The notes: a model not told the origin generated them from the sequence alone. 18,123 nt of DNA from Bacteriovoracaceae bacterium (GCA_041586955.1 JBFGZE010000071.1:1-18123), one strand, 5' to 3'. Positions 296 to 16,140 are shown, numbered from the stretch's first letter. Made by a program: numbers and translations.

Positions 296-751
296 ATGAG
301 CATTAATGAAAAAACATATCAAAACCCAGAGGTGATTCAACTTCTTGGTGAAATTTATTGCGCTGAAATATCAGGCCTGAATCGTTATCTTCACTATTCT
401 TTTATGGTGATGGGCCATAATCGTATCCCTATTCAAAAATGGTTTCGCAATAATGCTATGGAAAGCATGAACCATGCTATTACGATGGGCGAGAAGATTA
501 CCTCTCTTGGTGGGCATCCTCCAATGGTACCGATAAGTATTCAGGAGAATAACCTCCATAATATTCAGCAATTATTAGAAGAATCCCTCCGTCATGAACA
601 AAATGCCATCAAACTTTATAAAGGTTTAAGTGTTATGGCCGCAAGTTTGGGCGATATTGCACTAGAGGAATTGGCACGTGATTTAGTTCGAGAAGAGATC
701 GAGCATGCCGATGAAGTGCGAAAGATGTTAAGAAAACCAGATTCGCCCTGA
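296..751 (+). CDS. bfr: Bacterioferritin-like protein (ferritin superfamily four-helix bundle)
   Basis: 151 aa with E24-x6-Y31, ESMNH60, LGGHP loop, HEQNAIKLY and EEIEH ferroxidase-type motifs. Good SD upstream. Confidence 0.85.
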   Translation: MSINEKTYQNPEVIQLLGEIYCAEISGLNRYLHYSFMVMGHNRIPIQKWFRNNAMESMNHAITMGEKITSLGGHPPMVPISIQENNLHNIQQLLEESLRHEQNAIKLYKGLSVMAASLGDIALEELARDLVREEIEHADEVRKMLRKPDSP

Positions 752-757
752 TTAACT

Positions 758-805
758 GGAGGTTACCTCCTGGAAGGCCGAGGCCTCGCTTCGGCAATTC
801 ACATT
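758..805 (+). terminator. Tandem hairpins after bfr; possible weak terminator or mRNA-stabilising structure
   Basis: GGAGG-TTA-CCTCC (758-770) and GCCGAGGC-CTC-GCTTCGGC (777-795, one G:U pair). There is no strong U-tract immediately after. Confidence 0.35.
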
Positions 806-894
806 TTCATGACTTGGATCGGTCATGGTTAGGTCATATTCCCCTCGAGTTTTTAAGAAATCTTAATAATTCACTAATCTTCTCAAGTTAAAGA

Positions 895-2376
895 ATGGAT
901 TTAACGATAAGGAGGTATAGTTTCTTAAACATAAGTGAGGAAGATATGAAAAAAGCGCAAAAGTTGCAGCATGAAGACTTTCTAATTGAGGGTGAAAAAC
1001 GCCTCCATTTTGTCAGGCAAGACCGCCATGAGACTAAAACCGGTGAGTACTTCCTTGAATATAATAATAAAAAATACCCCATCTTAGACTATAGTTATTT
1101 TGGTATAAGCTTTGAATCAGATGTTGATATCGATCAAGAGAAAAAATTAGATAAGGTAATCTTCTCTAATGCCAATAAAACCTTTGGCGAATTTCACGCT
1201 ACTGTCAAGCGAAGTGAAAAGAGGGGGGGGAAATATAAAATTGCTCTGGAACTGAATGAAGGATTTCTTCCGGTTGATTCATTGATCGCAGATCAAGAAG
1301 CGCAAGATATTCTCGATGACCATAGTCAATACCGACAATTTATTGGTGATATTCCTGTTGAACTTAAGTCTGCCGTCTATGAAATTAAGGATGTCATTAC
1401 AAATCTCAAAGATAAAATCGATAATTTAGAAAAAAATAAAATGTTTTACTCTGAAGATGATATGAAAGCATTTGAGGAGTCGGTAAGTTGTAAAATACAA
1501 TCTTATTTAAGTGAATATTTCGATCCTTTCTATGATCAATTGGTTGCCTTTTCACAAAAGATACCCAAAGATGCTCAAGAGAAAATGTATCAATTTTTTA
1601 GAGATCAATTAAAACCAATACTTTATTTATCACCTTTTGCCCATCGCTCTTATTATAAGCCATCTGGTTATGCCGGCGATTATGAGATGATGAATATTCT
1701 TTATAATGATGAGGCGGTGGGAACATCATTATTTGCTAAAGGGATTAACAAATATTTTGTGAATCATCCTAACGCAAAGGCGGTTCGCAATCGCTCCCAA
1801 TACCTCTACCGTTTCTTAACAAACCATATTGAAAAGAACCCGGGAAAAACGTTGAGCTTCTTATCTGTCGCCTCAGGCCCGGCGAAAGAAATTCAATTAA
1901 TTCTCTCCCAATTGCCCGTTGAGCTTTGCAATACTTTAGAGATTAATTTATTAGATCAAGACCTGAATTCTTTAAAGTTTGCCCAAAAAGAAATTAACCG
2001 TATTATTCGTGAAAGAAACCTTAAAACTAAGGTAAATTATCTCAATCAATCCATTAAAAATGTGATTATTGAGGGACTTTCCGGTTCTTATGATGTTGTC
2101 TATTCTGCTGGGCTTTTTGATTATTTCTCTGACGATGTAGCGAGAGAAGCGGCCATGCGTATGTATGCGGCGGTTAAATCTGGTGGTGAATTAAATATTG
2201 GGAACTTTTGTTTACAACCGTCATCAGCAGCTTTGATGATGTATACACTCGATTGGTATTTAATCTATCGCTCCGAAGAAAGACTCACTAATATTTATTC
2301 TCCTATTTGTTCTCAATTGCGTATCGATAGCGAAGAAATGGGCGTTAATCTTTTTGTGGTCTTCCAAAAGGATTAG
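895..2376 (+). CDS. PhcB-like class I SAM-dependent methyltransferase (3-hydroxy fatty acid methyl ester signal-synthase-like) with N-terminal PilZ-like domain; probable true start ATG 946
   Basis: Motifs SPFAHRSYYKPSGYAGDYEMMNILY, AVRNR, motif I SVASGPAKE, LLDQD, YDVVYSAGLFDY, GGELNIGNF and LDWYLIYRS match my recollection of the PhcB family. The N-terminus has RQDR and DYSYFG (DxSxxG). GAGG lies 5 nt before ATG 946. The methyltransferase fold is secure; the subfamily is less so. Confidence 0.75.
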   Translation: MDLTIRRYSFLNISEEDMKKAQKLQHEDFLIEGEKRLHFVRQDRHETKTGEYFLEYNNKKYPILDYSYFGISFESDVDIDQEKKLDKVIFSNANKTFGEFHATVKRSEKRGGKYKIALELNEGFLPVDSLIADQEAQDILDDHSQYRQFIGDIPVELKSAVYEIKDVITNLKDKIDNLEKNKMFYSEDDMKAFEESVSCKIQSYLSEYFDPFYDQLVAFSQKIPKDAQEKMYQFFRDQLKPILYLSPFAHRSYYKPSGYAGDYEMMNILYNDEAVGTSLFAKGINKYFVNHPNAKAVRNRSQYLYRFLTNHIEKNPGKTLSFLSVASGPAKEIQLILSQLPVELCNTLEINLLDQDLNSLKFAQKEINRIIRERNLKTKVNYLNQSIKNVIIEGLSGSYDVVYSAGLFDYFSDDVAREAAMRMYAAVKSGGELNIGNFCLQPSSAALMMYTLDWYLIYRSEERLTNIYSPICSQLRIDSEEMGVNLFVVFQKD

Positions 2377-2382
2377 ATCACC

Positions 2383-3840
2383 ATGAGTGATGAGGCCTTG
2401 GCCACTTCGGTCGCTGATATTCGCCATAGGGAACGTCTTAACGAATTAAAGACTTTCCTGCGCATTTGTAGCGGTGGGTTGTCGATGCCTCTTTTCCTGT
2501 TGTTTTTTATTGCCGACATCTTCTATGCTCCAGAACAAAAGTGGACTTTCCTTGGATTAAGGCTTTTGATGATTCCGGTCTGCCTTTTGACCTCTACCAT
2601 GGTGAAAAAAAGCAAAGACGATCAACATATTCAGAAAGTGGGAACTTTTTATACCGCCTTTAATAGTTTTATTATTACCTATATGATTTTTGCAACAGAG
2701 GGGGTGAGCTCTCCTTATTATGCAGGTCTTAATCTTGTTTCGGGGATTTTATCTTTTGTCCCTTGGACCAAAAAATTTCTCGCCATTAATTCAGCTATCG
2801 TTTATGGACCTTACTTTTTAATTGGTGCCTTTACCTTTCATATGGATCAATTGCGTCCTGCTATTATCAATTTATTTTTTATGGCGGGGACATTTATTGT
2901 CTGTTTTGTCATACGGCATTTTTCAGAAAAATTACGTGAACAAGATGCCTCGAGTAAATTCTTATTACAGCAAGAAATGCAAAATCGCGGCAAGATTATC
3001 GAAAGACAGACTCAAGAGGCGGTGCAATTAAAAGACCTAACGAAACAATTTAGCCCGCAGATCGTCCATGCCATTCAAAATGGTAATTTAGACATTTGGA
3101 AACCAATTCAAGAGACCCATATTTGTGCCATCTTTATTGATATCGTTAACTCAACTGAAAAAGTGGTGAATATTGATAAGGTTAAATTACAAAAAGTGAT
3201 TTCTCTTTTTATCCACGATACCATGTCCATTCTTTTAAAATACGACATCACTCTCGATAAATTTATGGGGGATGGGATCTTGGCCTTCTCCAATAATCCA
3301 ATGAAGCAATCCAATTATATTACTCGTGTGCTACGGGCCGCGACTGAGATTATCGATAGAATTGAGGAAAATCGCAGTCATTATTTAGAGCATTGGGGCA
3401 GTGAATTTCAAATTAAAATTGGTGTCGCTGAGGGAATTGCGAATGTCGGTTTTTATGGGGAAGATAAAACGCTGAAAAGTTATACCGCTATTGGCAAAGT
3501 GATTAATTTGGCCTGTCGTCTCTGTAGTGCTGCCGAAGATAATGGTATTTTTATTTCGGAGAGTGTTCAGGAAAAAATGGACCATAAAATTTTTATGTCT
3601 CGCTCAATGGGGAAAACGCAGTTGAAAGGTTTTGCCGAGGATGGTGTTAATGTTTTTCAAATCGTGAAAGATAATAGCACCCGCAGTGAAACCACGGTTC
3701 ATAATTGTCCTGATGGCCATGGTATTTTGCATTTGGACGTCAGCGATGCGGGGATTTTCATTTTTAAATGCCGCTCCTGTGATTACATCCTTAATAATTC
3801 CTCAGACAATGATGATAATAACTCATCTCTCGCGGCCTAG
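2383..3840 (+). CDS. Membrane-bound class III adenylyl cyclase: 6-TM sensor/anchor, helical linker, catalytic domain, C-terminal Zn-ribbon-like tail
   Basis: Six hydrophobic segments lie in aa ~25-180. Catalytic motifs are FIDIVNST (metal Asp), DKFMGDG (substrate Lys, second Asp), IKIGV, YTAIGKVINLACRL (Thr specifier, Asn-x3-Arg) and LKGF. The tail carries CPDGH...CRSC. The gene starts 6 nt after the upstream stop. Confidence 0.9.
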   Translation: MSDEALATSVADIRHRERLNELKTFLRICSGGLSMPLFLLFFIADIFYAPEQKWTFLGLRLLMIPVCLLTSTMVKKSKDDQHIQKVGTFYTAFNSFIITYMIFATEGVSSPYYAGLNLVSGILSFVPWTKKFLAINSAIVYGPYFLIGAFTFHMDQLRPAIINLFFMAGTFIVCFVIRHFSEKLREQDASSKFLLQQEMQNRGKIIERQTQEAVQLKDLTKQFSPQIVHAIQNGNLDIWKPIQETHICAIFIDIVNSTEKVVNIDKVKLQKVISLFIHDTMSILLKYDITLDKFMGDGILAFSNNPMKQSNYITRVLRAATEIIDRIEENRSHYLEHWGSEFQIKIGVAEGIANVGFYGEDKTLKSYTAIGKVINLACRLCSAAEDNGIFISESVQEKMDHKIFMSRSMGKTQLKGFAEDGVNVFQIVKDNSTRSETTVHNCPDGHGILHLDVSDAGIFIFKCRSCDYILNNSSDNDDNNSSLAA

Positions 3841-3906
3841 CTCCTTAGCGCCGTTATTAGACCTATCGGAAATGCCAGACTAAAATGGAGATAAGTTTTC
3901 TTGGAC

Positions 3907-4671
3907 TTAATCACTGAACTCTTGTGCCAATTGATGATAATTGCGGAAAGATTCTTTCTCATTGGTGAAAAAATTAAATTTGAAGATACACCAAAAGGCC
4001 GAGACACCGTCTTTCCAGCCAATTTTTTTACCTTCCTGGTAACTCCGGCCATCGTAGCTAATAGGAACTTCATAGATTCTAACTCCCGGCATTTTTGCGA
4101 GCTTGGCAGTCATTTCTGGTTCAATACCAAAGCGTTTAGATGTCAGGAGCATATTGCGAATCAGATTACCGTTAAAAACTTTATAGCAAGTTTCCATATC
4201 GGTCAGATTTAAATTGGTCGCCATATTTGATAATAATGTCAAAACTTTATTTCCAATCATATGCCAGAAATAAAGGACGCGGACAACTTCACCCTTAAAG
4301 CGAGAGCCGTAAACCACATCAGCATTATTTTCAAAAAAGGGACTCAGTAGTTTATGATAGTCCTGAGGATCATATTCTAAATCGGCATCTTGAATGAGAA
4401 CAATATCTCCAGTGGAAATACTAAAACCAGCGGTAATCGCGGCACCCTTGCCCATATTTTTTTCTTGGTAATGAACGACATAATTCTTTTTGTTTTCATA
4501 ATCGGCTTGAATGAGGTTTTTACTTTGATCTGTCGAGCCGTCTTCAATGAGAATGATTTCATGATCGGTGATCTGGCCAGGAAGACTTGTGAGTGAATTC
4601 TCAACTTTTTCAGTAATCGCCTTAAGAGTTCTTTCTTCATTATAGACTGGAATGATAATACTTAATTTCAT
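3907..4671 (-). CDS. GT2 glycosyltransferase, DPM1/polyprenol-phosphate sugar synthase-like
   Basis: LSIIIPVYNEE, EDGSTD, NMGKGAA, QDADLEYDP, VVYGSRF, TDMETCYK, RFGIEPE, EVPISY and GKKIGWKDG motifs. ATG 4671 is preferred to TTG 4674. Confidence 0.9.
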   Translation of the reverse strand: MKLSIIIPVYNEERTLKAITEKVENSLTSLPGQITDHEIILIEDGSTDQSKNLIQADYENKKNYVVHYQEKNMGKGAAITAGFSISTGDIVLIQDADLEYDPQDYHKLLSPFFENNADVVYGSRFKGEVVRVLYFWHMIGNKVLTLLSNMATNLNLTDMETCYKVFNGNLIRNMLLTSKRFGIEPEMTAKLAKMPGVRIYEVPISYDGRSYQEGKKIGWKDGVSAFWCIFKFNFFTNEKESFRNYHQLAQEFSD

Positions 4672-4674
4672 CAA

Positions 4675-5358
4675 TTAATCCTTTTTAATGGCCAATGCTT
4701 CGACATTTTTACCAAAAAATGGTGAGAAAATTTTGTCGCAAATTAAAGAAATAGGGAAAATAAAGCGGTCGAATATTTTAACCGTCACCGGATTAAAGGA
4801 GCCCTGTTTATCAAGTAATTTAAAAAGATAAGCGGCGAGAAATCCCATGGAGTCGACATAGCGGCAAAAATTAATTTGAAAACCGGCCTTTTTTAATTTC
4901 TGAATGATCTCTTCTTTATGGTAGCGGCGATAATGGCCCACTGATTTATCAAAAGAGCTATAAAGAATATTAAACGCTGGTAGGAATAAATAAATCTTGC
5001 CTTCCTTCGGCAAAAAATTATAGAGGTCCTTTAGTACCTGCTGATCGTCTTCAATATGCTCAAGGACGTTGAGAGAATATATTTGGGAATGTCCGCTTTC
5101 ATCGAGCTCATTGATACTTTGATAAACCCGATATCCTTTTTCCTTAAGGGCGCTCGATAAAGTTTGATCAATCTCAATGCAGTCAATATTAAAGCCCTGG
5201 CCTTTGAGGGAGTCGGCAAAAGTGCCAATTCCTGCACCAAAGTCGAGCAATTGATTGTTCTGTGAGAAGGTGTTGCCAACTCTTTGGGTGAGATGTCGGT
5301 TATAATTTTTTGCATACTTGAGAATTTCTAACTCATTGATGCCCGAGTAATGATCCAT
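4675..5358 (-). CDS. Class I SAM-dependent methyltransferase, co-transcribed with the DPM1-like GT2
   Basis: LLDFGAGIG motif I, CIEID, SLNVLEHIEDD and FDKSVGHYRRY motifs. Its stop lies 3 nt before the GT2 ATG. Confidence 0.88.
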   Translation of the reverse strand: MDHYSGINELEILKYAKNYNRHLTQRVGNTFSQNNQLLDFGAGIGTFADSLKGQGFNIDCIEIDQTLSSALKEKGYRVYQSINELDESGHSQIYSLNVLEHIEDDQQVLKDLYNFLPKEGKIYLFLPAFNILYSSFDKSVGHYRRYHKEEIIQKLKKAGFQINFCRYVDSMGFLAAYLFKLLDKQGSFNPVTVKIFDRFIFPISLICDKIFSPFFGKNVEALAIKKD

Positions 5359-5534
5359 ATTAAGCCTATTTTTCAGAGTGATAGCATTTTACTGAAAAGA
5401 AGAGATGTTTACAATTGATTCGGGTTTCTTGTGCCGTGCGTTTGCTTAATAAGAGATGAAAAATGAGATTTATTTCTCCTCAGTTTTAAATTTTTTCCTT
5501 AAAATAGAGAGTCGCTATTAAAGAAGGAATATAA

Positions 5535-6785
5535 ATGAGTCAAACTCAGGCCAAGGCCCTAGGCCTTTTCATTATTTTTATTGGTATTATTGCTCGCTTG
5601 ATTTGGCCACAGGATATGCCTTGGATGGGTGATCAGATCCATAATTTCCAATTGGGAATGGAAATTAAGTCCACTGGTCATTGGCCTTTAGTCGGTATTA
5701 TGAGCGGTTCAGGCATTTCTAACCCCGGCCTTAGTGCCTGGATTTTTGGAATTTTGGCCTTTTTCTCGAATACTCCTTTAGAAATGGTTCGTCTCATTCA
5801 GATTTTAAATGTTGTCACTCTTCTTTCTATCTTTGCTTTTGTGACTAAATTTGTGAAAAGTGAGGAACGTGAAAATTGGTATTTTGGCCTCTTACTCTAT
5901 GCAATTAGTCCTCTTGCCGTATTATTTTCAAAGGGGATTTGGTCTGTTGATATGTACTCTCTTTTTAGCTTTTGCCTAATCTTTTCCTTTTGGTTTCGGG
6001 ATAATAAATGGGGTGCATTTTTATGGGGACTTTTTGGTGCTTTGAGTGGTCAAGTTCATCTGAGTGGTTTCTTTTTTGCTTTTGGATTTGTCTTTTTTGC
6101 ACTGGTTTCGGATTTTTTATCGAAAAAATATCATCATTGGCAATGGTGGGTTGGTGGCAGCATTTTAGGGACATTGCCAATGCTTCCGTGGATTAAGTTT
6201 GCCTTTTTAAATCAATTATCAAAGGGGGAGTCAGCTTCCTGGGTTCTCCTTAAAAATATCTATCGGTTTCGTTTTCAAAAATACTTCCTGAAAGATGGCT
6301 TCGGTTTTAATTTAGATTTCCAATTTGGACGTCTGATGAATGAATTTTTAGAAGGGCCGATTATATTGGGACAAAAAACTCATCTCAACTTCATTTCTCA
6401 TTATTTTCTTTATGGAATTTGTTTCGTATCCATTGGCCTTTTTCTCTACAATCATAGACAGGGATTCGCTGGAAAGCTTAAAAAGATTCTTCTCAATTGG
6501 AAATCTCTAGATTTCCTTTTACTCTCTTCATTTTTATGTGCCGGTATTGTGATGGTGGCGACGGGCATGAATATTTACTCGCATTATTTAATTGTATGGT
6601 ATCCCTTACAATTCCTTCTAGTTATGCGTTTGGCACGCGCAAGGTGGATGCGTTATGGGATTCTTGTTGGTAATATCATTCTTCTTTTAGGCACCTTATC
6701 TTTCATCCACGAAAGAGATCATGCAGGTGGGCATTATGGTAAAACCTATCGCTCAGAGTATCGTCAGCAAAATGGTGCGCAATAA
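5535..6785 (+). CDS. Polytopic membrane protein, GT-C (ArnT/PMT-like) glycosyltransferase
   Basis: One N-terminal TM helix is followed by a loop with an acidic residue (WMGDQ, WPLVG..NPG), then many TM segments (AISPLAVLFSKGIW, QVHLSG). SD AAGGA upstream. Confidence 0.65.
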   Translation: MSQTQAKALGLFIIFIGIIARLIWPQDMPWMGDQIHNFQLGMEIKSTGHWPLVGIMSGSGISNPGLSAWIFGILAFFSNTPLEMVRLIQILNVVTLLSIFAFVTKFVKSEERENWYFGLLLYAISPLAVLFSKGIWSVDMYSLFSFCLIFSFWFRDNKWGAFLWGLFGALSGQVHLSGFFFAFGFVFFALVSDFLSKKYHHWQWWVGGSILGTLPMLPWIKFAFLNQLSKGESASWVLLKNIYRFRFQKYFLKDGFGFNLDFQFGRLMNEFLEGPIILGQKTHLNFISHYFLYGICFVSIGLFLYNHRQGFAGKLKKILLNWKSLDFLLLSSFLCAGIVMVATGMNIYSHYLIVWYPLQFLLVMRLARARWMRYGILVGNIILLLGTLSFIHERDHAGGHYGKTYRSEYRQQNGAQ

Positions 6786-6797
6786 GTAGAATTGAGT

Positions 6798-8228
6798 TTA
6801 ATTGATTTTAAAATTGCGCCAATGATGCCCGTATTGCAAATAGCAGGATTTGGGAAAAGGCCCCTTGGCGAAAAAATAATCGTCATTTTCAAAAAGTAAT
6901 TCTTGAACAAAGGGGCGGCATTGGTCGATGATTTTAAGGCTTTGTTCCACTGTGAGTGGGTAAATATTGCTATTGCGGGTTTTTCCAAAGATTAAATAAT
7001 CAAAATGTTCCTGGATTTTACTATAATCACCATATTGATAATAATAGGCTCCAGGTTTCATTAGGGTGGTAATAAGGCCAGGTGTCCCCATAATATGAGG
7101 GTAGGAATTATTATCACTTTCCTGAATAATTAATTTCTGGAGATCTTTTAAGTTATCTCTATTTTTTTCTTTCTGATCCCAAGAGGCAATATGATTTTTA
7201 ATGGCCTTAAGGGGCTTGGTGAAACGGCCCATTCCCGCTAGCAGAATAAGGACAAGGGTCATGTATTTGGCCTTTAGAGGCATTTCCTTAATATAACGGT
7301 CTTTTAAAATGACAAAGTAAATGAGAATAGGGGCACCAATAAAGACGCCGTAATGATAATAGGATTTACCGGCCAAGATATGAATGCCGAGCAGCGGCAA
7401 GTAAATACTAAGAATATGGCAAAGCTCAGACACTTTTTTATCGCGTAAAAGACCTTTGGTGCAATAGAACAAAAGAAAGACTGAGGGGTAGCAAATCTTG
7501 AGAAAGTCTTTCACATTAAAATGTTGATAGGCGGTAAAAATATCTGGGAAATGGCTATAGGATGGCCCAAAGAAATAAGAGCGGTATTTAAAATTAAATA
7601 AAAGAAAGGCGAGGTGAATAATCATTAGGACCCCTCCCCATTTGCGCTCTTTTTGAAAAATAAAATAGGACAGGCCTAAAAAGAAACCACAAAAAGGAAA
7701 GATCTCCTTAAAGGTATTAAGAATAATAGTACTGATAAGAATATGCTTAATATCGTTTTTGCGAATGGCCCATAAAACATAAAGCATTGGCACTAAGGAC
7801 CAAGTCGAAGGATGAATTTGGTAGCCAATGGCAGAAACAATCCCTCGGTTAAAAGTCACTAATAAAAGTAAAAGAGAAAAATCAATAAGAGAGAGGTTCT
7901 TTATCTGGCCAAAAATAAGCGCTAGGAAAAATAAATAGAAGAGGACTTCAATACTAAGAGACCAGGCATAGGAATAATCAAAAAAGGGTGAGAGCAGGGC
8001 AAAAGGGATAATGATCGGGTCTACATGGTCACTGAAAATTTTAACGTCACGAAAGCCAATATAAGGGTTCCAGTTTTTTTTGGTACCAATTTCAATGATA
8101 GCATTATGATAAACGCCAAAATCCATAGTGTATTGTTGTGAATGATGGAGATTGAGGTAAGTATTAATGCTGGGCGCTAGAGATAAAATGACAATAAGTC
8201 CGAAAAGAATGTATTTAATTTTATTCAT
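6798..8228 (-). CDS. DUF2079-like polytopic membrane protein (putative GT-C glycosyltransferase); start probably ATG 8228 (longest ORF 8264)
   Basis: MDFGVYHNAI, FSDHVDPII, QIHP, TFKE and YYHY motifs, with many TM helices and a soluble C-terminal domain. Confidence 0.7.
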   Translation of the reverse strand: MNKIKYILFGLIVILSLAPSINTYLNLHHSQQYTMDFGVYHNAIIEIGTKKNWNPYIGFRDVKIFSDHVDPIIIPFALLSPFFDYSYAWSLSIEVLFYLFFLALIFGQIKNLSLIDFSLLLLLVTFNRGIVSAIGYQIHPSTWSLVPMLYVLWAIRKNDIKHILISTIILNTFKEIFPFCGFFLGLSYFIFQKERKWGGVLMIIHLAFLLFNFKYRSYFFGPSYSHFPDIFTAYQHFNVKDFLKICYPSVFLLFYCTKGLLRDKKVSELCHILSIYLPLLGIHILAGKSYYHYGVFIGAPILIYFVILKDRYIKEMPLKAKYMTLVLILLAGMGRFTKPLKAIKNHIASWDQKEKNRDNLKDLQKLIIQESDNNSYPHIMGTPGLITTLMKPGAYYYQYGDYSKIQEHFDYLIFGKTRNSNIYPLTVEQSLKIIDQCRPFVQELLFENDDYFFAKGPFPKSCYLQYGHHWRNFKIN

Positions 8229-8305
8229 AGCTGACAAAAAGTTTTCAAATTGAAAGGTTATCATTATATTTAATGAATATTTATACTAATTATCAAGAGA
8301 ATATT
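8229..8305. promoter_or_regulatory. Short AT-rich divergent promoter region
   Basis: TATAAT on the minus strand (8263-8268) and TATACT on the plus strand (8282-8287) lie between divergent starts 8228 and 8306. No convincing -35 boxes. Confidence 0.35.
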
Positions 8306-9073
8306 ATGGCCGATTTTGATTACAATACGATTCCCCTGGGTTACTACGACGATATTTTGGAAAATGGCCCTGCTATTAGACGATTTTGGCATTGGCTGAA
8401 ATTTAATCGCGTATTAGCGGCACTACCTAAAGGTGAAAATCAATCAATCATGGATGTCGGTTGCTTTGCTGGTTCTTTTTTAAAGCAAGTACCCGAAGGC
8501 CAATTTTCGCGCCAATTAGGGATTGATATTCTAGAAAAACAAATTGCATACGCTAACGAGCACCATGGTACGCAGGCCCGGAGCTTTAAGTATATTACCG
8601 ATCTTCAGGCCTTAACCAAAAAACCTGTTACGGATGAAAAGTTCGATGTTATTACGGTTATTGAAGTGATCGAACATTTACACTTTGCTGAGATCCGTGA
8701 TTTGATGGAAATTTGCCGTCAAAACCTTAAGCCTGGTGGGGAGCTTATTTTAACGACTCCCAATTACACCAGTATTTGGCCAGCTCTTGAGTTTTATCTC
8801 AATCATTTTGCTGATATCACGTATGAAGAGCAGCACATTACGAAGTTTAATTTCTTCAACTTTCACCGCAAATTACAAGCGATCTACCCACCACTTAAAA
8901 ATGATTTTATGCTGCAGTATAAGACCACTACTCATTTTATCACACCATTTTTAGCGCCTCTAAACTTCAAAAAATCACAGGATCTATCAAAAGCGATTAC
9001 GCCTAAGCAATGGCCATTTCCTTTAGGCCCATTGATTTTGGCCAAGTATCGTTATCATCCAAAAGAAGATTAA
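8306..9073 (+). CDS. Class I SAM-dependent methyltransferase (UbiG/Methyltransf_23-like); start probably ATG 8306 (longest ORF 8273)
   Basis: IMDVGCFAG motif I, LGIDI, FDVITVIEVIEHL and LKPGGELILTTPN motifs. Confidence 0.88.
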   Translation: MADFDYNTIPLGYYDDILENGPAIRRFWHWLKFNRVLAALPKGENQSIMDVGCFAGSFLKQVPEGQFSRQLGIDILEKQIAYANEHHGTQARSFKYITDLQALTKKPVTDEKFDVITVIEVIEHLHFAEIRDLMEICRQNLKPGGELILTTPNYTSIWPALEFYLNHFADITYEEQHITKFNFFNFHRKLQAIYPPLKNDFMLQYKTTTHFITPFLAPLNFKKSQDLSKAITPKQWPFPLGPLILAKYRYHPKED

Positions 9074-10464
9074 GGGCCAATTAGAAAAACGCGCCCTTTT
9101 TCCTTGAGAAGGAGGCGCATGGACTGGAGGGTCTCTGTTTTTTGATAATAATCCTCATTCGCTATAATGAGAATTTTACCGTCGACCATTTCGATTTCAT
9201 TTTTCTGCTCGACTTCTAGATTCAAACGAAATTGCATATAGCTGACCAGGCTCCAATAGGGATAGGCACTCGCGAGATTGATAACTTTCTTTACAGGCAG
9301 CTTTTCTCTTTCAATTATTTCTGACACTAAATTCAAAGACGGGTCTCGTCGTACTTTGCTACCGATGGGGAAAATAATAAAGGCCAAGGCCAAGGCCAGA
9401 GCAAAAACTTGGAGCTTCAAAAGGATCTTAGGGGCCCAAACTGCGGATTGCCGGAGGCAGGTCATCGCTGCGGTAAGGGCAAAAAAGGGCATGAGGGGAA
9501 TGAGATAATTGGAGTATTTAAACTTCATTAAAGATAATGGAATCAGCATACCCAGGAAACATAAGAGGGAAAAGCGGAAAAAGGAATTGGATCTCAATTC
9601 TTTTTGGCCGATACCAAAAATAATAAGGAGAGTCCAAACAGGGTTCGCTTTGAAAAGGTCCATGAGATATTGAAAATAATTAACGGCCTGCTGAGTATCG
9701 CGACCAGTTATAATTGTGCGGAAAACTTGAGCTTCCATATAATTGGTAAAAATGATGAAATCACCTTTGAGAAAGAGTGCCAAAGGCCAAAGTGCAAAGA
9801 GTGATAATCCCAAAATGAGGCCTAGCCAAGGCCTAGGAGTGAGGAGCACTTTAACATTTTTGGTTAACAAAAGGTGGAGGGCCATTAAAAATGGCAATAT
9901 GAGAGCAAAAGGCCCTTTAATGAGAAGGCCAAGTCCAAAGAGTAGGCCAATGAGAAGGAACGGTTTTTTCTCGCAGAATTTATTTTGATAATGGCGGAAA
10001 TAAATCAAAAGTCCCCACATTAAACAAAGGGTCAAAGGAATATCTAAATTGGGAAAACGCACCTTTTTAAAGAAAAATGGGATAAGTAATAAAAAAAGAG
10101 ACGCTATGAAAGCAAATTGACGGTGAACGATGGCGGCAATAGAGCGATAGAAGACCGTCAAGATTCCTATACCCCAAAGTCCAGCGAAAAGTCGCGCCTG
10201 TAAAAAGTCACTCCCAAAAATTTTAAAAAATAAACCCTCTAAAATGAAGAGAAAGGGGGGGTGTTGATCAAAACGGGGATATTGTAATTGAGAGAGGTGC
10301 GGGATGAGCCAATGGCCTTTTTCCGCTGCATTTTTACCAAAGCTCGAGTAAAGAAGGCCATCGTGAAAAAATCCTGGGACCCAGGCATTTTGGAGAAAGA
10401 TAATAAATCCGAGAAAGAGAATCACGTAAAAAGAAAGGTCTCTTTTATCGTTATTAACCATCAT
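9070..10464 (-). CDS. ArnT/PMT_2-family GT-C membrane glycosyltransferase
   Basis: FHDGLLY, HWLIP, FDQHPP, ARL, NLDIPL, LLIKGP and KYSNYLIPLMP motifs across multiple TM helices. Its start overlaps the upstream stop (TAATG). Confidence 0.85.
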   Translation of the reverse strand: MMVNNDKRDLSFYVILFLGFIIFLQNAWVPGFFHDGLLYSSFGKNAAEKGHWLIPHLSQLQYPRFDQHPPFLFILEGLFFKIFGSDFLQARLFAGLWGIGILTVFYRSIAAIVHRQFAFIASLFLLLIPFFFKKVRFPNLDIPLTLCLMWGLLIYFRHYQNKFCEKKPFLLIGLLFGLGLLIKGPFALILPFLMALHLLLTKNVKVLLTPRPWLGLILGLSLFALWPLALFLKGDFIIFTNYMEAQVFRTIITGRDTQQAVNYFQYLMDLFKANPVWTLLIIFGIGQKELRSNSFFRFSLLCFLGMLIPLSLMKFKYSNYLIPLMPFFALTAAMTCLRQSAVWAPKILLKLQVFALALALAFIIFPIGSKVRRDPSLNLVSEIIEREKLPVKKVINLASAYPYWSLVSYMQFRLNLEVEQKNEIEMVDGKILIIANEDYYQKTETLQSMRLLLKEKGRVFLIGP

Positions 10465-12074
10465 TAATCGATATCCTTATCTTTAAATTGATCGGCAATC
10501 AGTTTATTGGCAAATAAAGTGAAATGACCACGTTTGATTTCCTCATAACGAGAGGAGCCTCGCAATTGAATGATGATATCTTGCAATTGTCCGGCGGTAT
10601 AAGGGTAATGATTTATTGTGGGATTGATGATGATAAGGTCTTGCTCTTTTTGATAACAAAACTTCAATGTCTCAAGAGGATTATCATACCCGAGGTGGGG
10701 GTAGATTGAACCTTGTGCACATAGCCTCATTTGCGGCATGATCTGTGTTTTAATCTGATTGATTTGATGCCAATTATCCGTAATGGGATAATAGCGAAGA
10801 AATCCACTCCCCACTAAAGCGCCATAAAGAGTGAAGAAAATGAGGAGCGCTAATTGATGAGTTTTGGTGACAAAGATTTCGTTGACCAAGAAACGCTCAC
10901 CTTGGAGGAATTTAATAAGGCCGTAGAAAATGAAGGGGACATAGGGAGCACTATAGTAAAGCATTAATGTATGCATTAATGGCGCTCCCGCCGTTGAATG
11001 GATCAAGACAAAGGGTGCAATGCCAATGAGAAAAAAGGGCACCAAAATTTGCATGAAAAGAGAGGGGATGAGGAATTTAAGCCAACTGCCAGTGAGGATA
11101 TCCTTTGCCACCAAATGTGGGTTTTTGAGCATCCCCAGAAGGTTTTCCCCCATGGAGCTTCCATATTTAAGAGCGGTGGAGGCAATAATATAATCAGAGC
11201 TACCACGGTAATGAGGGATGACCCATTTTAAGCTGATAATTGTAATAATCGCAGAGATAATTGTCGTGAAAACTGTATGACGGCGATTTTCTTTCTGACA
11301 TAGAAAGTAAGCGGCACTCATGCCAATAAGGTAAAAGCCCGCGTCTTCTTTGACAGCAAGGGTGAGGAAAACCATTAAATAATATGAGCGCCATTTGCTC
11401 TGTTCAAAGAAGTAAAAAAGCCATAAAAAGAAGGGAACAAAGAAAACCTCCATATGGAAGCTATATTTCAGAATATGGGACGTCGCAAAGAAATTAAAAA
11501 AGGCAAAACAAATAATAACTTGAAAAATAGGCGTTAAATTGGCCTTGGTCATTAATTTTTTAAGAGGAATGATCGTGGACCAAAGCGTGACTCCATGGAG
11601 GAGCACTAAGAACCATGGCGAATTGAATAGTCGATGAAAGGGTGCCAAGAGATAAAAAATATAGGTGGAATGCACCCCAAAGTGATTACAATTACAGGCC
11701 GAAGAAAACCAATCTTTACCGCGCATGAAATTGGCAATCATCATATCAAAATAAGAGAAGTCAACATCAACGACCTTATAGGTCATGAAATTAAGGGCCG
11801 TGACTTTCAGAAAAACAAAAAGAAAAAAGGTACTAATGATAATGATCAACTGGTCAGCTCTCTTTGAAGAGAGTGCCAATTCTGGATCTTGAAATACCTT
11901 TTTAATTTGATTACGGGTTTGCTGGTGGCAGGTACTAAGAATGGCCAGGCCCGCCAAGATGAGAAAATAGACGTGACGAATGGGCCAAAGAAATTTGGGC
12001 ATAAAGGGGGCACCGCCAAAAAGAAAGTGCACCGCTAAGAGAATTCCGGCAAAGAGGCCATAACGTTTTAACAT
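10464..12074 (-). CDS. DUF2079-like polytopic membrane protein (putative GT-C glycosyltransferase)
   Basis: VDFSYFDMMIAN, HFGVHSTYI, FHMEVF, VKEDAG, YYSAP and CAQGSIYPHL motifs, with many TM helices. Confidence 0.78.
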   Translation of the reverse strand: MLKRYGLFAGILLAVHFLFGGAPFMPKFLWPIRHVYFLILAGLAILSTCHQQTRNQIKKVFQDPELALSSKRADQLIIIISTFFLFVFLKVTALNFMTYKVVDVDFSYFDMMIANFMRGKDWFSSACNCNHFGVHSTYIFYLLAPFHRLFNSPWFLVLLHGVTLWSTIIPLKKLMTKANLTPIFQVIICFAFFNFFATSHILKYSFHMEVFFVPFFLWLFYFFEQSKWRSYYLMVFLTLAVKEDAGFYLIGMSAAYFLCQKENRRHTVFTTIISAIITIISLKWVIPHYRGSSDYIIASTALKYGSSMGENLLGMLKNPHLVAKDILTGSWLKFLIPSLFMQILVPFFLIGIAPFVLIHSTAGAPLMHTLMLYYSAPYVPFIFYGLIKFLQGERFLVNEIFVTKTHQLALLIFFTLYGALVGSGFLRYYPITDNWHQINQIKTQIMPQMRLCAQGSIYPHLGYDNPLETLKFCYQKEQDLIIINPTINHYPYTAGQLQDIIIQLRGSSRYEEIKRGHFTLFANKLIADQFKDKDID

Positions 12075-12177
12075 GATCTATTTATCGCATATTTGCCATA
12101 GCTTTGTCTTTTATTTTGCGTAGTGTTGCGATAATAAAACTAAAAATTTAAAGTGAAGTTTGATAAATTAGGCGCAT

Positions 12178-13575
12178 ATGATCAATTGCAAAAAAATAAC
12201 AGAAAAGCAGCTATGGGGCGCCATAATCATCTTCCACTTATTAGCAGTGGTTTTTGGCCTAGGGTTTCTTCATTTCGATGAACATTTTCAAATTATTGAG
12301 TTCCTCAATTATAAATTGGGAGGCATTGAGGCGCATTTCTTACCTTGGGAGTTTCAAGAGAGAATTCGTCCATGGTTCCAGCCTTTCATTCTTTATTGTT
12401 TTGCCTTACCTCTCAAATCGATCGGAATATCGTCTCCATTTGTCCTCTCAGGGATTTTCCGTCTGATTTCTAGTGCGCTAGGGATTGCCTCGATTTATTA
12501 TTTTTGGCGCCAATTTAAAGATGAATTAACCGAGAATCGCCTATCTCTTCTTTTTTGGCTTGGACTTTTATGGTTTATTCCCTATCTCCATGCCAGACCT
12601 AGTAGTGAGTCTTGGTCTGCTAGCTTTTTTCTTTTAGGTCTTAGCTGTTTTATGGGAAAAAGGTCTAATTGGGGTGGTGTTTTTTTTGCTTTTAGTTTTC
12701 TTTGTCGCTACCAAATGGGTTTTATGATTGCCCCGGTTTATTTTTGGGCAGTCTTCAGGCGATGGCCTTGGCGAGCTGTCATAATGAGTTTTATCGTCTT
12801 ATGGTCAATGATCGCCCTAGGTAGCTTATGCGATTATTGGGGTTATGGTGAATGGAGCTTAGCACCTTGGAATTATTTAAAAGTCAATCTCATTGAGAAT
12901 AAGGCCGCTCATTTCGGTGTCGACCCCTTCTATTATTATATCACTAGAGGATTCAGTCGCGGTTACCCGCCAATTAGCCTTTTGATTATTGTCTCCAGTG
13001 TTTATTTTTGGTGGAAAAACCCCAAGCATATTTTGACCTGGGTAGGCCTGCCTTTCCTTGTGGTTCACTCTCTTATCGGCCATAAAGAATTACGGTTCAT
13101 TTTACCTTTTCTGGTTTTGACTCCTTATTTTATTGTTTACGCTTTTTCCCATTGCTCACTTTTGAAGGCGAATTGGATTCGCCGTCTTTGTTTTGGGGTC
13201 AATATCATTCTCTTAATTGTCGCTTCTCTTAAAATGGCAAACCCGGCAGTTGGCCTATATCGCTTCTTAGCGGGAACTTCAATAGAGACTCTCTATGTGG
13301 GGGGAGAAGACCCTTATAAGATGGTTGGTTTGCCTTTGCGTTTTTACCAGAAGCGAGCGCCAAAGATTGTTGAGCATCAAAAATTAACAGAAATCCCTTT
13401 TGATCAAGGGAAGTATATAATGACTCGTCATGGCCCTGATCTTTTTCCTTTTCTTGAAAATCCATCTTGTCAGCTTCTTTATCTGACTTACCCTCGTTTT
13501 CTTTTAAATTTTAATATTGGTAATTGGATTGCGCGCTCCCGCGTCTGGGGTGTCTTTTATTGCCAACACAAATAG
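12178..13575 (+). CDS. GT22-type (PIG-B/Alg9-like) GT-C mannosyltransferase-like protein
   Basis: HFDEHFQIIE, LPWEFQERIR, RPSSES, DYWGYG..PWNYLKVNL..HFGVDPFYYY and HSLIGHKELRFILP motifs are typical of PIG-B/Alg9-family enzymes. Confidence 0.85.
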   Translation: MINCKKITEKQLWGAIIIFHLLAVVFGLGFLHFDEHFQIIEFLNYKLGGIEAHFLPWEFQERIRPWFQPFILYCFALPLKSIGISSPFVLSGIFRLISSALGIASIYYFWRQFKDELTENRLSLLFWLGLLWFIPYLHARPSSESWSASFFLLGLSCFMGKRSNWGGVFFAFSFLCRYQMGFMIAPVYFWAVFRRWPWRAVIMSFIVLWSMIALGSLCDYWGYGEWSLAPWNYLKVNLIENKAAHFGVDPFYYYITRGFSRGYPPISLLIIVSSVYFWWKNPKHILTWVGLPFLVVHSLIGHKELRFILPFLVLTPYFIVYAFSHCSLLKANWIRRLCFGVNIILLIVASLKMANPAVGLYRFLAGTSIETLYVGGEDPYKMVGLPLRFYQKRAPKIVEHQKLTEIPFDQGKYIMTRHGPDLFPFLENPSCQLLYLTYPRFLLNFNIGNWIARSRVWGVFYCQHK

Positions 13576-13598
13576 AAAGGGCCCAATAGGCCCTTTTT
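13576..13598. terminator. Intrinsic terminator, probably bidirectional, between convergent genes
   Basis: AAAGGGCC-CAATA-GGCCCTTT inverted repeat with a T5 run on the plus strand and a shorter T run on the minus strand. It fills the 24-bp gap. Confidence 0.8.
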
Positions 13599-13599
13599 A

Positions 13600-14250
13600 T
13601 TAATAGCGACGCGGATTTATGGGAGGCTGAGGTGTCATTCGTAAATACGGCGTAATCGTATCAAAACCCAAAGGAAACTGAGTCCTAGCGTCCTCATCAT
13701 TGATACTGGGGACAATGACGCAATCATCACCATCTCGCCAATCCGCAGGTGTCGCCACGTGATGATATTCTGTTAATTGTAAGCTATCGATCACTCGAAG
13801 AATCTCGCCAAAGTTGCGGCCAGTGGAAGCCGGATAGGTAAGAGTGAGTCTCACTTTTTTATCAGGTCCAATCACAAAAACATTGCGAACAGTGAGAGTA
13901 TCATCGACATTGGGGTGAATCATGCCGTAGAGCTGAGCGATGCGATGATCCGGGTCGGCAATAATGGGAAAATTAACTTTGGTGTGTTGAGTGGCATTGA
14001 TATCTTCAATCCAGCGTAGGTGATCCTCAAGACTATCGACAGAAAGGGAAATAACCTTGCAATCCCTTTGGTCAAATTCATATTTAAGTTTGGCAACAGC
14101 GCCTAATTCAGTGGTGCATACTGGAGTAAAGTCTTTGGGATGGGAAAAAAGAACACACCAATGGTCACCAATCCATTTATGGAATTGGATTACGCCTTTG
14201 GTGGTTTCGGCCCGAAAGTCGGGAGCGACATCGCCTAATTGTACTCTCAT
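13600..14250 (-). CDS. 1-Cys peroxiredoxin (Prx6 subfamily)
   Basis: FSHPKDFTPVCTTE active site, TVRNVF, YPASTGRNF and ATPADW motifs. SD AAGGAGG upstream. Confidence 0.95.
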   Translation of the reverse strand: MRVQLGDVAPDFRAETTKGVIQFHKWIGDHWCVLFSHPKDFTPVCTTELGAVAKLKYEFDQRDCKVISLSVDSLEDHLRWIEDINATQHTKVNFPIIADPDHRIAQLYGMIHPNVDDTLTVRNVFVIGPDKKVRLTLTYPASTGRNFGEILRVIDSLQLTEYHHVATPADWRDGDDCVIVPSINDEDARTQFPLGFDTITPYLRMTPQPPINPRRY

Positions 14251-14320
14251 CGAATCCTCCTTAATGAAAAATGTTTAGACACAATAGAGAGTATTGCTGG
14301 AGAAAACTAGCTGCAAAGCA

Positions 14321-15337
14321 TTAGTCGCTGATCAATTCTTGAAGTTTACCGAACACGCTTTCCGCCGTGAAGTTTTTAAGGCATTCCATCTCCGGACAAG
14401 TGTGGAGGCCACAATAATGAGCATCCTTTGTTCGGCATAAAAGTGGCTCCAGGAAAAAATAAGGATGCATAATAGGGTTATAGGGGTGCCATTCTGTTGG
14501 TGGTTCTGGCCCAAAAAGAGTAACGGTGGGAATATTAAGAGCGGCGCAAATATGTTTGATACCAGTGTCATTGCCAACATAGAGCTTTGAGCCTTGAAGC
14601 TTAAGAGGGAGCTCGTTTAGGGGGGCCTCTACGAATTGGCAAATATTGGGAAAATTCAACTCATTTATTTTGGCCTTTATCTCCTGATCACCAGATGATG
14701 AAGAGAGGGGAATGAGAATTCTCATCTCCGTATCCCATTGTGCAATTAATTGGGCGAGCGCCTTAAAGTTTTTTAAATCCCATTTCTTTGTCTCTCGCGT
14801 GGCGACGACACCAAAAATAATATTATTATGGGAAATGCTATTTTTCCCTGTCATATGAGGTGGAAATTTCAAATAATGAGGAATCGGATGGCCCAGGGGT
14901 TTTCCTAGATAGGACCAGATACCATCAAGATCGCGTTGAATATTGGATTTGATTTCCCCTTGGTCGTGAACCAACCCATTTTTATGATGGTGGTTATGAG
15001 CGGTATAGGGAATACCCGTTAAAAGGGAGTAAAGCCTAAAAAACTTATGGGTGCGGCCACTTTGAAATAATTCGTGAATATGATCAAGGTGATAATTTTT
15101 AAGAGTTTTAAAAAACTGCAACCAATCGCGAATACTATTGAGCTTAAGAGGAATAATGCCATCAGCGGCAGTCTCCACCTTGGAAAACAAAGGGCAGATC
15201 CACTCCGGGACGGCGTAATAAACCTTACAATTGGGGTAAACTTGCTTGAGGTATTGAATGGTTGATAGCCCTATAACCGCATCGCCCATCGCCCTATTTT
15301 TGACAAGCAGAATATTTCCTGAAAAACTCTTATCCAT
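14321..15337 (-). CDS. GT9 glycosyltransferase (ADP-heptose:LPS heptosyltransferase-like)
   Basis: ILLVKNRAMGDAV, TKKW, YVGNDTGIKHICAALNIPTVTLFGP motifs and a Cys-rich C-terminus. Confidence 0.88.
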   Translation of the reverse strand: MDKSFSGNILLVKNRAMGDAVIGLSTIQYLKQVYPNCKVYYAVPEWICPLFSKVETAADGIIPLKLNSIRDWLQFFKTLKNYHLDHIHELFQSGRTHKFFRLYSLLTGIPYTAHNHHHKNGLVHDQGEIKSNIQRDLDGIWSYLGKPLGHPIPHYLKFPPHMTGKNSISHNNIIFGVVATRETKKWDLKNFKALAQLIAQWDTEMRILIPLSSSSGDQEIKAKINELNFPNICQFVEAPLNELPLKLQGSKLYVGNDTGIKHICAALNIPTVTLFGPEPPTEWHPYNPIMHPYFFLEPLLCRTKDAHYCGLHTCPEMECLKNFTAESVFGKLQELISD

Positions 15338-15375
15338 ACATAAACTGTATCGGAATTGCGGGTAATTGTCTCCCT

Positions 15376-16140
15376 ATGGTCAAATTAAGTATTGCTATTA
15401 TCACATTTAATGAAGAGCATAATATTGCTCGTTGCTTGGAATCGGTTAAGGACATTGCCGATGAAGTGATCGTGGTTGATTCTTTCTCTCAAGATAAAAC
15501 TGCGGCCATATGTCGGGAATATGGCGTACAATTGAGTCAGAGAGAATTTCCAGGCCATATCGAGCAAAAAAATCACGCTCTTTCTTTATGCACTCATCCC
15601 TATATTCTTTCTCTTGATGCTGATGAGGCCTTAAGTTCTGACTTGCGAGATTCCATTAAAAGAGTAAAAGAAAATTGGCAGGGAGCGGGATATTGCTTTA
15701 ATCGCTTAACAAATTATGCCGGTCATTGGGTACGTCATTGTGGTTGGTATCCCGATCGCAAATTGCGCTTAATCAAAAAAGATCAGGCGCAATGGCAGGG
15801 TGTGAATCCACATGATATTTTAAAATTGAAGGATGGACAAAAAGAGACATGGATTCCAGGGGATCTTTACCACTATAGTTATGACTCTATTTCAGACCAT
15901 ATCCGCCAAACAAATAAATTTACGACAATTGCGGCTAAGGCCTCATTTGAAAAAGGTGTGCGCTCTAGCCAATTTAAAATTATCACAAGACCAATTCTTA
16001 AATTTTTGCGCGATTATATTTTTAAGCTTGGATTTTTAGATGGCCGCTATGGTTTTATCATTTGTTATATCAACGCTCTAAGTGCCTTTTTGAAGTATGC
16101 CAAAATAAAAGAACTCGAGTTAAACAAACCAATTGATTAA
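15376..16140 (+). CDS. GT2 glycosyltransferase, WaaE/KdtX/LgtF-like LPS core glucosyltransferase
   Basis: LSIAIITFNEE, VVDSFSQDKT, QKNHAL, LSLDADE, GWYPD..LRL, H-YSY and GFLDGRYG motifs. Confidence 0.9.
   Translation: MVKLSIAIITFNEEHNIARCLESVKDIADEVIVVDSFSQDKTAAICREYGVQLSQREFPGHIEQKNHALSLCTHPYILSLDADEALSSDLRDSIKRVKENWQGAGYCFNRLTNYAGHWVRHCGWYPDRKLRLIKKDQAQWQGVNPHDILKLKDGQKETWIPGDLYHYSYDSISDHIRQTNKFTTIAAKASFEKGVRSSQFKIITRPILKFLRDYIFKLGFLDGRYGFIICYINALSAFLKYAKIKELELNKPID

Follow-up and report, generated by a model that had tools for sequence, protein, structure and literature searches.

Among described signalling systems the closest to the locus considered here is phcBSRQ, and the closest protein design is an engineered one, the CqsS-Rv1625c chimera. 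According to the available text of PMC7694676, PhcB produces 3-hydroxypalmitic or 3-hydroxymyristic acid methyl ester (3-OH PAME or 3-OH MAME), PhcS senses it, the two proteins are said to have co-evolved, and exogenous 3-OH MAME rescues the phenotypes of phcB mutants; nearly all of the phcBSR literature that we found concerns Ralstonia or Cupriavidus. The role of the six-helix membrane domains of adenylate cyclases has been debated for decades, and, going by the available parts of PMC4821796 and PMC12414865, the idea that they are receptors rests largely on CqsS chimeras. Beltz, Bassler & Schultz (eLife 2016; PMC4821796, available part) engineered the CqsS-Rv1625c protein and proposed that six-helix cyclase anchors are orphan receptors, reporting that CqsS-type receptors resemble the natural anchors only remotely and locally, and a 2025 review (PMC12414865, available part) still presents the function of these anchors as an open question. 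Here we analyse a stretch of 18,123 nucleotides (nt) from a Bacteriovoracaceae bacterium (GCA_041586955.1, JBFGZE010000071.1:1-18123; hereafter the window), in which the gene of a PhcB-family S-adenosylmethionine (SAM)-dependent methyltransferase immediately precedes one that encodes a class III adenylate cyclase with a PhcS-type membrane domain.

An original prediction, made from the DNA of this locus alone, held that it retains a synthase-then-receptor layout and replaces the kinase of the Phc system with a cyclase. Our comparisons of protein sequences support this view, through the homology of the sensor domain, the conservation of the gene pair and the membership of the methyltransferase in the PhcB family. 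We consider it reasonably likely that the two genes constitute a self-contained Phc-type module, in which a lipophilic methyl ester made by the methyltransferase would be read by the cyclase and cyclic AMP (cAMP) altered as a result.

The two genes are co-oriented and 6 nt apart, as had been noted: the first open reading frame (ORF) occupies 895-2376 on the + strand (493 amino acids (aa) as the longest ORF), the second 2383-3840 on the same strand (485 aa), and the spacer 2377-2382. Such spacing makes co-transcription and translational coupling of the methyltransferase and cyclase genes likely. The features of the pair, with the basis for each, are:

895..2376 (probable start ATG 946), + strand: PhcB-family SAM-dependent methyltransferase gene (ORF, translation, homology)
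1000..1272, + strand: PilZ-fold beta-barrel domain, residues 36-126, with RQDR and DYSYFG (AlphaFold2 model, Foldseek)
1273..1836, + strand: all-helical middle domain with KPSGYAGDY, residues 127-314 (AlphaFold2 model)
1852..2373, + strand: Rossmann-fold class I methyltransferase domain, residues 320-493, with SAGLFDY and WYLIYR (Foldseek, sub-threshold Pfam)
2377..2382, no strand: intergenic spacer, 6 nt (sequence read directly)
2383..3840, + strand: receptor-type class III adenylate cyclase gene, 485 aa (ORF, PF00211, alignment to CyaB)
2455..2925, + strand: PhcS-type sensor domain of six membrane helices, residues 25-181; the conserved motif TEGVSSPYYAGLNL opens helix 4 (BLASTP, hhalign)
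2926..3114, + strand: cytoplasmic helical linker, residues 182-244, with a conserved QFSPQ-V just before the catalytic domain (conserved columns)
3115..3663, + strand: class III cyclase catalytic domain, residues 245-427 (PF00211, alignment to CyaB 3r5g)
3700..3786, + strand: zinc-ribbon-like C-terminal motif, C442, H446, C463 and C466 (conserved columns)

Loci of the Ralstonia type were reached through a plasmid search, which contained no Ralstonia PhcB record but led to a Paraburkholderia locus encoding a methyltransferase, a kinase and two response regulators; its methyltransferase, used as a query, yielded 80 loci of Paraburkholderia, Cupriavidus and Ralstonia. The Ralstonia pickettii locus L160 holds four genes, for a methyltransferase, a kinase with transmembrane (TM) helices, HisKA (233-294) and HATPase (341-452), a REC-HisKA-HATPase protein and a REC protein, which is the phcBSRQ layout as given in the available text of PMC7694676. 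The published phcB primer '-514' from the same text matches the L160 methyltransferase gene at ORF nucleotide 511 with 6 mismatches in 26, and the reverse phcB primer produced nothing beyond scattered chance matches in the Burkholderiaceae loci.

The membrane domain of the window cyclase is homologous to that of the phcB-adjacent kinases in Ralstonia, Cupriavidus and Paraburkholderia. The six TM helices ascribed to this protein were recovered as six hydrophobic segments within residues 25-181, and BLASTP aligned its first 200 residues with the N-terminal membrane domain of the L160 kinase at 24% identity over 216 residues (E 1e-9), the two having in common the motif TEGV(S/Q)SPYY(A/V)GLNL (TEGxxSPYYxGLNL), which, on the positive-inside rule and the hydrophobic segments, would lie at the outer end of helix 4. 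An hhalign comparison of 19 cyclase-type membrane domains with 16 Burkholderiaceae ones, hand-picked from 75, returned a probability of 99.4% (E 3.3e-21, 188 columns), against 0.1% for the reversed target and at most 0.3% for four other multi-TM proteins of the window. Pfam has no model spanning the membrane domain in either the cyclase or the L160 kinase, and beyond the membrane domain of the cyclase protein it shows only PF00211 and no HisKA/HATPase transmitter. Since the PhcS-type sensor is present and the HisKA/HATPase part absent, the window protein has a PhcS domain yet is not a PhcS. MASE8 (PF20968) was considered as an identity for the membrane domain and rejected, at 11.1 bits against a cut-off of 26.2; among four relatives with precomputed MASE8 matches, three were rescanned and none was recovered at E<=1.

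Similarly, the methyltransferase is related to the protein in the phcB position of L160, with 27% identity over residues 156-487 (E 3e-36). Invariant residues of its helical and Rossmann parts (in KPxGYAGD, RNR, GPxxE, LxD, GLFDY and the W of WxLIYR) were compared with 12 Burkholderiaceae orthologues, and 10 of 11 such columns are identical in all 12, the exception being D356, which is Ser there. The three motifs noticed earlier in this protein were found as KPSGYAGDY, SAGLFDY and WYLIYR, and sit in invariant or near-invariant columns of a 30-member family alignment, in which K255, G261, D262 and R300 are also invariant (and identical in 12 of 12 Burkholderiaceae orthologues). An AlphaFold2 model of the whole protein (predicted local distance difference test score, pLDDT, 88.1) comprises a beta domain (45-120), a helical domain (127-314) and a Rossmann domain (320-491); its Foldseek neighbours are small-molecule methyltransferases (best 3ocj, E 2e-11), and Pfam gives weak class I methyltransferase matches only, all under cut-off. 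A whole-library search matched 3950 representatives at E<=1e-3, of which 412 also pass E<=1e-30, and the JGI label '3-hydroxypalmitic acid methyl ester biosynthesis protein', which is the source's label rather than a test, is attached to 11 of the 120 relatives listed. One plasmid relative is annotated CheR. In a Myxococcaceae metagenome-assembled genome (MAG) the gene after that of the methyltransferase encodes a fatty-acid hydroxylase joined to cytochrome P450 in one protein (L063:5469-7502), a neighbour that fits a hydroxylated fatty-acid substrate.

The arrangement of methyltransferase and sensor is conserved well beyond the window. In a survey of 108 loci related to the window methyltransferase, with downstream genes classed by a tblastn script, 63 retain the order of methyltransferase then sensor, and the outputs joined to the sensor are histidine kinase, hybrid kinase, cyclase or PP2C phosphatase, as listed here for the next gene on the same strand:

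37 loci: membrane-domain homologue with kinase
18 loci: membrane-domain homologue with cyclase
2 loci: membrane-domain homologue with PP2C phosphatase
6 loci: membrane-domain homologue with output cut off or undetected
2 loci: cyclase, membrane part too diverged for tblastn
1 locus: PP2C, membrane part too diverged for tblastn
4 loci: kinase, membrane match undetected
13 loci: partner not recognised
25 loci: no downstream ORF on the methyltransferase strand, 19 of them in one sister subfamily of 24 members

Pfam results for 34 of the 84 downstream ORFs comprise 25 HATPase/kinase, 3 cyclase and 3 SpoIIE proteins, the P450 with fatty-acid hydroxylase, and 2 blanks. The cyclase-type loci carry the labels Bdellovibrio, Pseudobdellovibrionaceae, Bacteriovoracaceae and Oligoflexia, with 'Acidobacteriota' MAGs and one 'Pseudomonadota' MAG. 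The PP2C type, a third kind of output, is represented by SpoIIE/PP2C-ended membrane proteins after the methyltransferase in Leptospira alstonii (L058:5849-7297), a Calditrichota MAG (L099:6073-7437) and a 'delta proteobacterium' MAG (L105:5977-7371), and the methyltransferases of these three loci form a clade of their own (value 100). Among Verrucomicrobiota and Myxococcota, receptors of about 840-950 aa run from the membrane domain through HisKA, HATPase and REC to a second HATPase (L008, L060, L061, L064, L065, L068, L070, L072, L074, L079, L083, L087, L101 and L104), and look like PhcS and PhcR fused in one chain. Of the Burkholderiaceae-type loci, 75 of 81 were scored as sensor with kinase, at least one of the six misses (L185) being an artefact of ORF picking. 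Adjacency of methyltransferase and sensor is thus retained across at least five phylum labels, a recurrence which indicates that the pairing exceeds chance. An even draw of 401 genomes from the window's own phylum, with a threshold of E<=1e-40 for the methyltransferase, gave the methyltransferase in 53 genomes at 56 places; at 39 of these the sensor gene comes next on the same strand, 6-172 nt away, and at 2 more it is divergent within 1.5 kb.

Furthermore, the two proteins appear to have diverged as a pair. A FastTree tree of 114 methyltransferases (ORFs under 420 aa omitted, 12 of the 81 Burkholderiaceae-type loci retained) places the window copy in a clade (value 98) of 28 rows, 21 of them with a cyclase partner. 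In a sensor-domain tree of 72 rows, drawn from downstream ORFs of at least 200 aa and of recognised class together with 9 Burkholderiaceae rows, the window falls in a clade (value 96) of 22 rows, comprising 19 cyclases, 2 kinases and 1 protein with output undetected; the kinase rows (L032 and L042) are the two loci whose methyltransferases fall inside the cyclase-partnered clade. Judged from these trees, the synthase and the membrane domain move and evolve as a pair, whereas the cytoplasmic output is swapped, a pattern expected of a cognate ligand-maker and its sensor; a membrane domain that served as an anchor and nothing more would hardly produce it. Flagged long branches in both FastTree trees make any count of output swaps provisional.

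At the output end of the window receptor, PF00211 matches residues 245-427 (50.4 bits against a cut-off of 21.9, and 53.7 bits at 3115-3663), and the complete catalytic set claimed for this class III cyclase is in place, D253, K293, D297, T368, N375 and R379 all being located by alignment to the adenylate cyclase CyaB (3r5g, E 4e-18) and 16 relatives. We take D253 and D297 to act on metal, K293 and T368 on substrate, and N375 and R379 in the transition state; the Lys/Thr pair in common with CyaB would confer adenine specificity and hence cAMP as the product. In one relative (L046) Asn replaces the substrate Lys. The linker, whose columns are conserved in 17 complete cyclase-type relatives, would serve as the signal-transmitting helix. 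The zinc-ribbon-like tail, overlooked in the earlier reading of this protein, has three Cys columns invariant in 17 of 17 complete relatives and a fourth ligand column that is Cys or a neighbouring His; one relative (P0252) matches a zinc-ribbon Pfam family at E 4.6e-4, under the cut-off.

The earlier reading also passed over the N-terminus of the methyltransferase. An AlphaFold2 model of the isolated beta domain (pLDDT 91.6) has PilZ domains as nearly all of its top 25 or so listed Foldseek matches in the PDB (E 3e-3 to 2e-2, TMq 0.55-0.75), including MotI, YcgR, VCA0042, BcsA, MrkH, PlzA and Alg44. PilZ domains that bind cyclic di-GMP (c-di-GMP) carry the motifs RxxxR and (D/N)xSxxG. Within RQDR and (D/N)xSxFG, the clade of the window methyltransferase keeps R41 and R44 without exception and S67 and G70 with few exceptions or none; DYSYFG agrees with the second motif, while RQDR has two rather than three residues between its arginines. 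At the positions of these four residues 12 of 12 Burkholderiaceae sequences carry others. Pfam gave no PilZ match to the methyltransferase at E<=0.1, and in a comparison of the profile with PDB sequences the only PilZ protein was PlzA, at E 0.84. On the structural model, the synthase N-terminus has a PilZ fold with near-canonical c-di-GMP motifs that are absent from the Ralstonia type, and is a candidate c-di-GMP site. Such an N-terminus raises the possibility that signal production is itself gated by c-di-GMP, and the genome encodes 4 GGDEF proteins.

In the mechanism that we favour, the methyltransferase would act as a cytoplasmic PhcB-family carboxyl methyltransferase that methylates a lipid-like carboxylic acid, a (hydroxy) fatty acid being the likeliest, to give a methyl ester able to permeate membranes. 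The ester would enter membranes and be bound by the PhcS-type six-helix domain of a cyclase dimer, either within the membrane or on its outer side; the helical linker would then shift the alignment of the catalytic domains in the homodimeric class III cyclase, raising or lowering cAMP synthesis, and cAMP could act through the ten cNMP (cyclic nucleotide)-binding proteins of the genome. The substrate, diffusion of the ester between cells, binding of the ligand and of c-di-GMP, and the direction of regulation are points that we infer; the homologies, the layout of domains, the complete catalytic set, the conserved pairing and the joint divergence of synthase and sensor are observed. A more elaborate version, which we offer as speculation with a low chance of being correct in full, would make the pair a relay in predatory bacteria, in which c-di-GMP acting on the PilZ fold switches a diffusible ester and the PhcS-type domain of the cyclase reads that ester into cAMP.

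A number of observations weigh against a two-gene module of ester synthase and cyclase receptor. Two published primers for the characterised R. solanacearum phcB locus gave 0 matches each, so our comparisons with PhcB and PhcS are with orthologues from R. pickettii and other sister species, and even in Ralstonia the binding of the ester to the membrane domain of PhcS is a genetic inference, in the available text of PMC7694676. In the methyltransferase tree the Burkholderiaceae and Verrucomicrobiota form a separate clade (value 100) of 48 rows, with the window copy outside it, and the N-terminal 150 residues do not align with the Burkholderiaceae PhcB-type proteins. Of the claim that the methyltransferase is PhcB-like, family membership has therefore held, on the 27% identity and the invariant columns in common, and placement in the Ralstonia/Cupriavidus PhcB clade has not; as far as homology can tell, the protein is a member of the PhcB family but not of the PhcB clade proper. 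The low identity and the outlying position leave the signal chemistry open, and this position together with the unaligned N-terminus means that the product may differ from the Ralstonia esters. A placement off the clade had been named beforehand as evidence against the prediction, but in our reading it spares the synthase-receptor logic, because the sensor domain co-diverges with the methyltransferase. The best PDB sequence match of the family profile is, moreover, CheR (5ftw, E 3.6e-7), over profile positions 261-423 only. On the receptor side, four Bdellovibrio-labelled cyclases (L038, L040, L043 and L045), a B. bacteriovorus chromosome record among them, have APLPFASRL where the window has KVINLACRL, with no transition-state Asn; these may be weak or non-catalytic, and the missing Asn suggests that cAMP synthesis may not be the whole function of this receptor class.

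The distribution of the two genes supplies the remaining counter-evidence. Within the phylum sample, 15 of the 56 methyltransferase places have no sensor nearby, and 25 of 64 membrane-domain places have no adjoining methyltransferase at E<=1e-40 (G084, G199, G376 and G144 are among the genomes with such places), mostly with none in the whole genome; membrane domains without a synthase may 'listen' as orphan receptors, or may pair with synthases that have diverged further. Among 100 further genomes of the family to which the window belongs, the methyltransferase was found in no more than 3. The sister subfamily of 24 tree loci (L007 and L009-L031), recorded from Desulfomonilia, Thermodesulfobacteriota and some Bacteriovoracaceae, consists of methyltransferases about 485 aa long; these have no downstream receptor, and no membrane-domain match occurs anywhere in the locus.

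Several of these features enter into other explanations of the pair. The ester might stay in the membrane of its producer, as a lipid second messenger or a read-out of the state of the membrane or of fatty acids, such that an internal cue, either c-di-GMP on the PilZ fold or the supply of fatty acids, is converted to cAMP. We judge this possible, though on balance unlikely: it would account for the fusion of a PilZ fold with conserved motif residues to the synthase, for the GGDEF proteins of the genome and for two tightly coupled genes that move as a unit without other partners, and by our own reasoning predatory bacteria are not obvious sensors of population density; against this, the characterised relative works between cells, exogenous 3-OH MAME rescuing phcB mutants (PMC7694676, available text), the phylum sample includes 25 sensor copies with no synthase close by, which agrees with reception of a signal from another source, and the conserved sensor motif is placed at the predicted outer face of the membrane.

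An adaptation system resembling that of CheR, in which the methyltransferase would methylate glutamates on the cytoplasmic part of the adjacent receptor and so tune its output with no diffusible signal, seems to us improbable. The CheR match of the family profile and the CheR annotation of the plasmid relative point in its direction, as does the presence among the Foldseek matches of the PilZ-fold model of 5y4r ('Structure of a methyltransferase complex'), which we take to be a PilZ protein bound to CheR1. The profile match is, however, confined to the Rossmann core, CheR is not among the top listed Foldseek matches of the whole methyltransferase model, the structural neighbours of which are small-molecule methyltransferases, and the characterised member of the family makes a fatty-acid methyl ester (PMC7694676, available text). 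A cytoplasmic methylation site is also hard to square with a membrane domain that co-varies with the methyltransferase while the cytoplasmic output is freely swapped between kinase, cyclase and phosphatase. That the genes are neighbours without a shared function, with the membrane domain serving only as an anchor, we regard as very improbable indeed: some methyltransferases without a sensor and some sensors without a methyltransferase do occur, as such a view would have it, yet the genes stay adjacent under at least five phylum labels even where the output has changed, the tree of the synthases matches that of the sensors, and motifs are conserved within the membrane domain itself. The module of ester synthase and cyclase receptor remains our preferred account of the pair.

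Further details of the locus concern its expression and surroundings. The methyltransferase probably starts at ATG 946 (M18) and not at 895, giving a product of 476 aa, because a Shine-Dalgarno-like GAGGAAG stands just 5' of ATG 946, the database copy (P0003, 476 aa) begins at the corresponding position and the alignment of family relatives begins around M18. A perfect AAGGAGGT is present at 910-917, within the 5' end of the methyltransferase ORF as annotated, but no start codon in frame lies at a usable distance from it; GAGGAAG rather than this element is probably the ribosome-binding site in use. Scans of 600-4300 for promoters and terminators found 14 and 2 sites, with no excess over shuffles, and NCBIfam returned nothing useful for either protein. 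The genome has a single copy each of the methyltransferase and cyclase genes. Across 21 cyclase-type loci, close kin apart, no further gene consistently accompanies the pair. Nor does anything connect it with the remaining genes of the window, which encode a ferritin-like protein, envelope glycosyltransferases, a peroxiredoxin and two response regulators. From 3907 to 16140 there extends a long envelope-glycosylation run, with two GT2 proteins, PMT_2, DUF2079, GT22 (Alg9-like), a GT9 heptosyltransferase and two class I methyltransferases; the same run contains two large multi-TM proteins without Pfam matches (5535-6785 and 6798-8264).

In literature searches, with most subscription journals outside their reach, we found no work linking PhcB/PhcS to cyclases, Bdellovibrio or PilZ domains and no printed description of a cyclase-output Phc form. 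Phc-type signalling, confined in the literature that we found to Ralstonia and Cupriavidus, would extend to the Bdellovibrionota and other phyla. Its sensor domain is seen coupled to three kinds of output, and c-di-GMP control of signal production is raised as a possibility. A natural cyclase having a membrane domain related to a quorum-sensing receptor, and standing beside a candidate ligand-making gene, would allow ligand, receptor and output to be tested with two cloned genes. Were the c-di-GMP-to-cAMP relay true, no natural cyclase before this one would have had both a known cognate ligand for its six-helix 'anchor' and a synthase dedicated to that ligand, and the sensor domain would be a portable module wired to kinase, phosphatase or cyclase across phyla.

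Compared with phcBSRQ, the window has the same order of methyltransferase then membrane sensor, homologous helical and Rossmann parts with common motifs, and a homologous six-helix sensor domain with YYxGLNL in common; it differs in an output composed of a class III cyclase and a zinc ribbon in place of HisKA and HATPase, in having no PhcR or PhcQ genes, and in a methyltransferase that is only 27% identical, belongs to another clade and carries PilZ-type motif residues absent from 12 Burkholderiaceae sequences. The kinase-output Phc-type cassettes outside Burkholderiales, in Verrucomicrobiota, Myxococcota and others, likewise contain the synthase-sensor pair, but their output is a histidine kinase or a fusion of about 900 aa resembling PhcS and PhcR. 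Pseudomonas aeruginosa CyaB (3r5g) is the best solved relative of the catalytic domain, with the metal Asp, Lys/Thr and Asn/Arg pairs in common, a likeness that covers the catalytic domain only, as that is the solved chain. The CqsS-Rv1625c chimera resembles the window protein in joining a six-helix quorum-sensing domain to a class III cyclase, such that a lipophilic autoinducer should control cAMP (PMC4821796, available part); the chimera, however, was constructed by joining a Vibrio receptor to a class IIIa cyclase of mycobacterial origin, whereas the window protein is natural, carries a PhcS-type domain and is encoded beside a candidate synthase.

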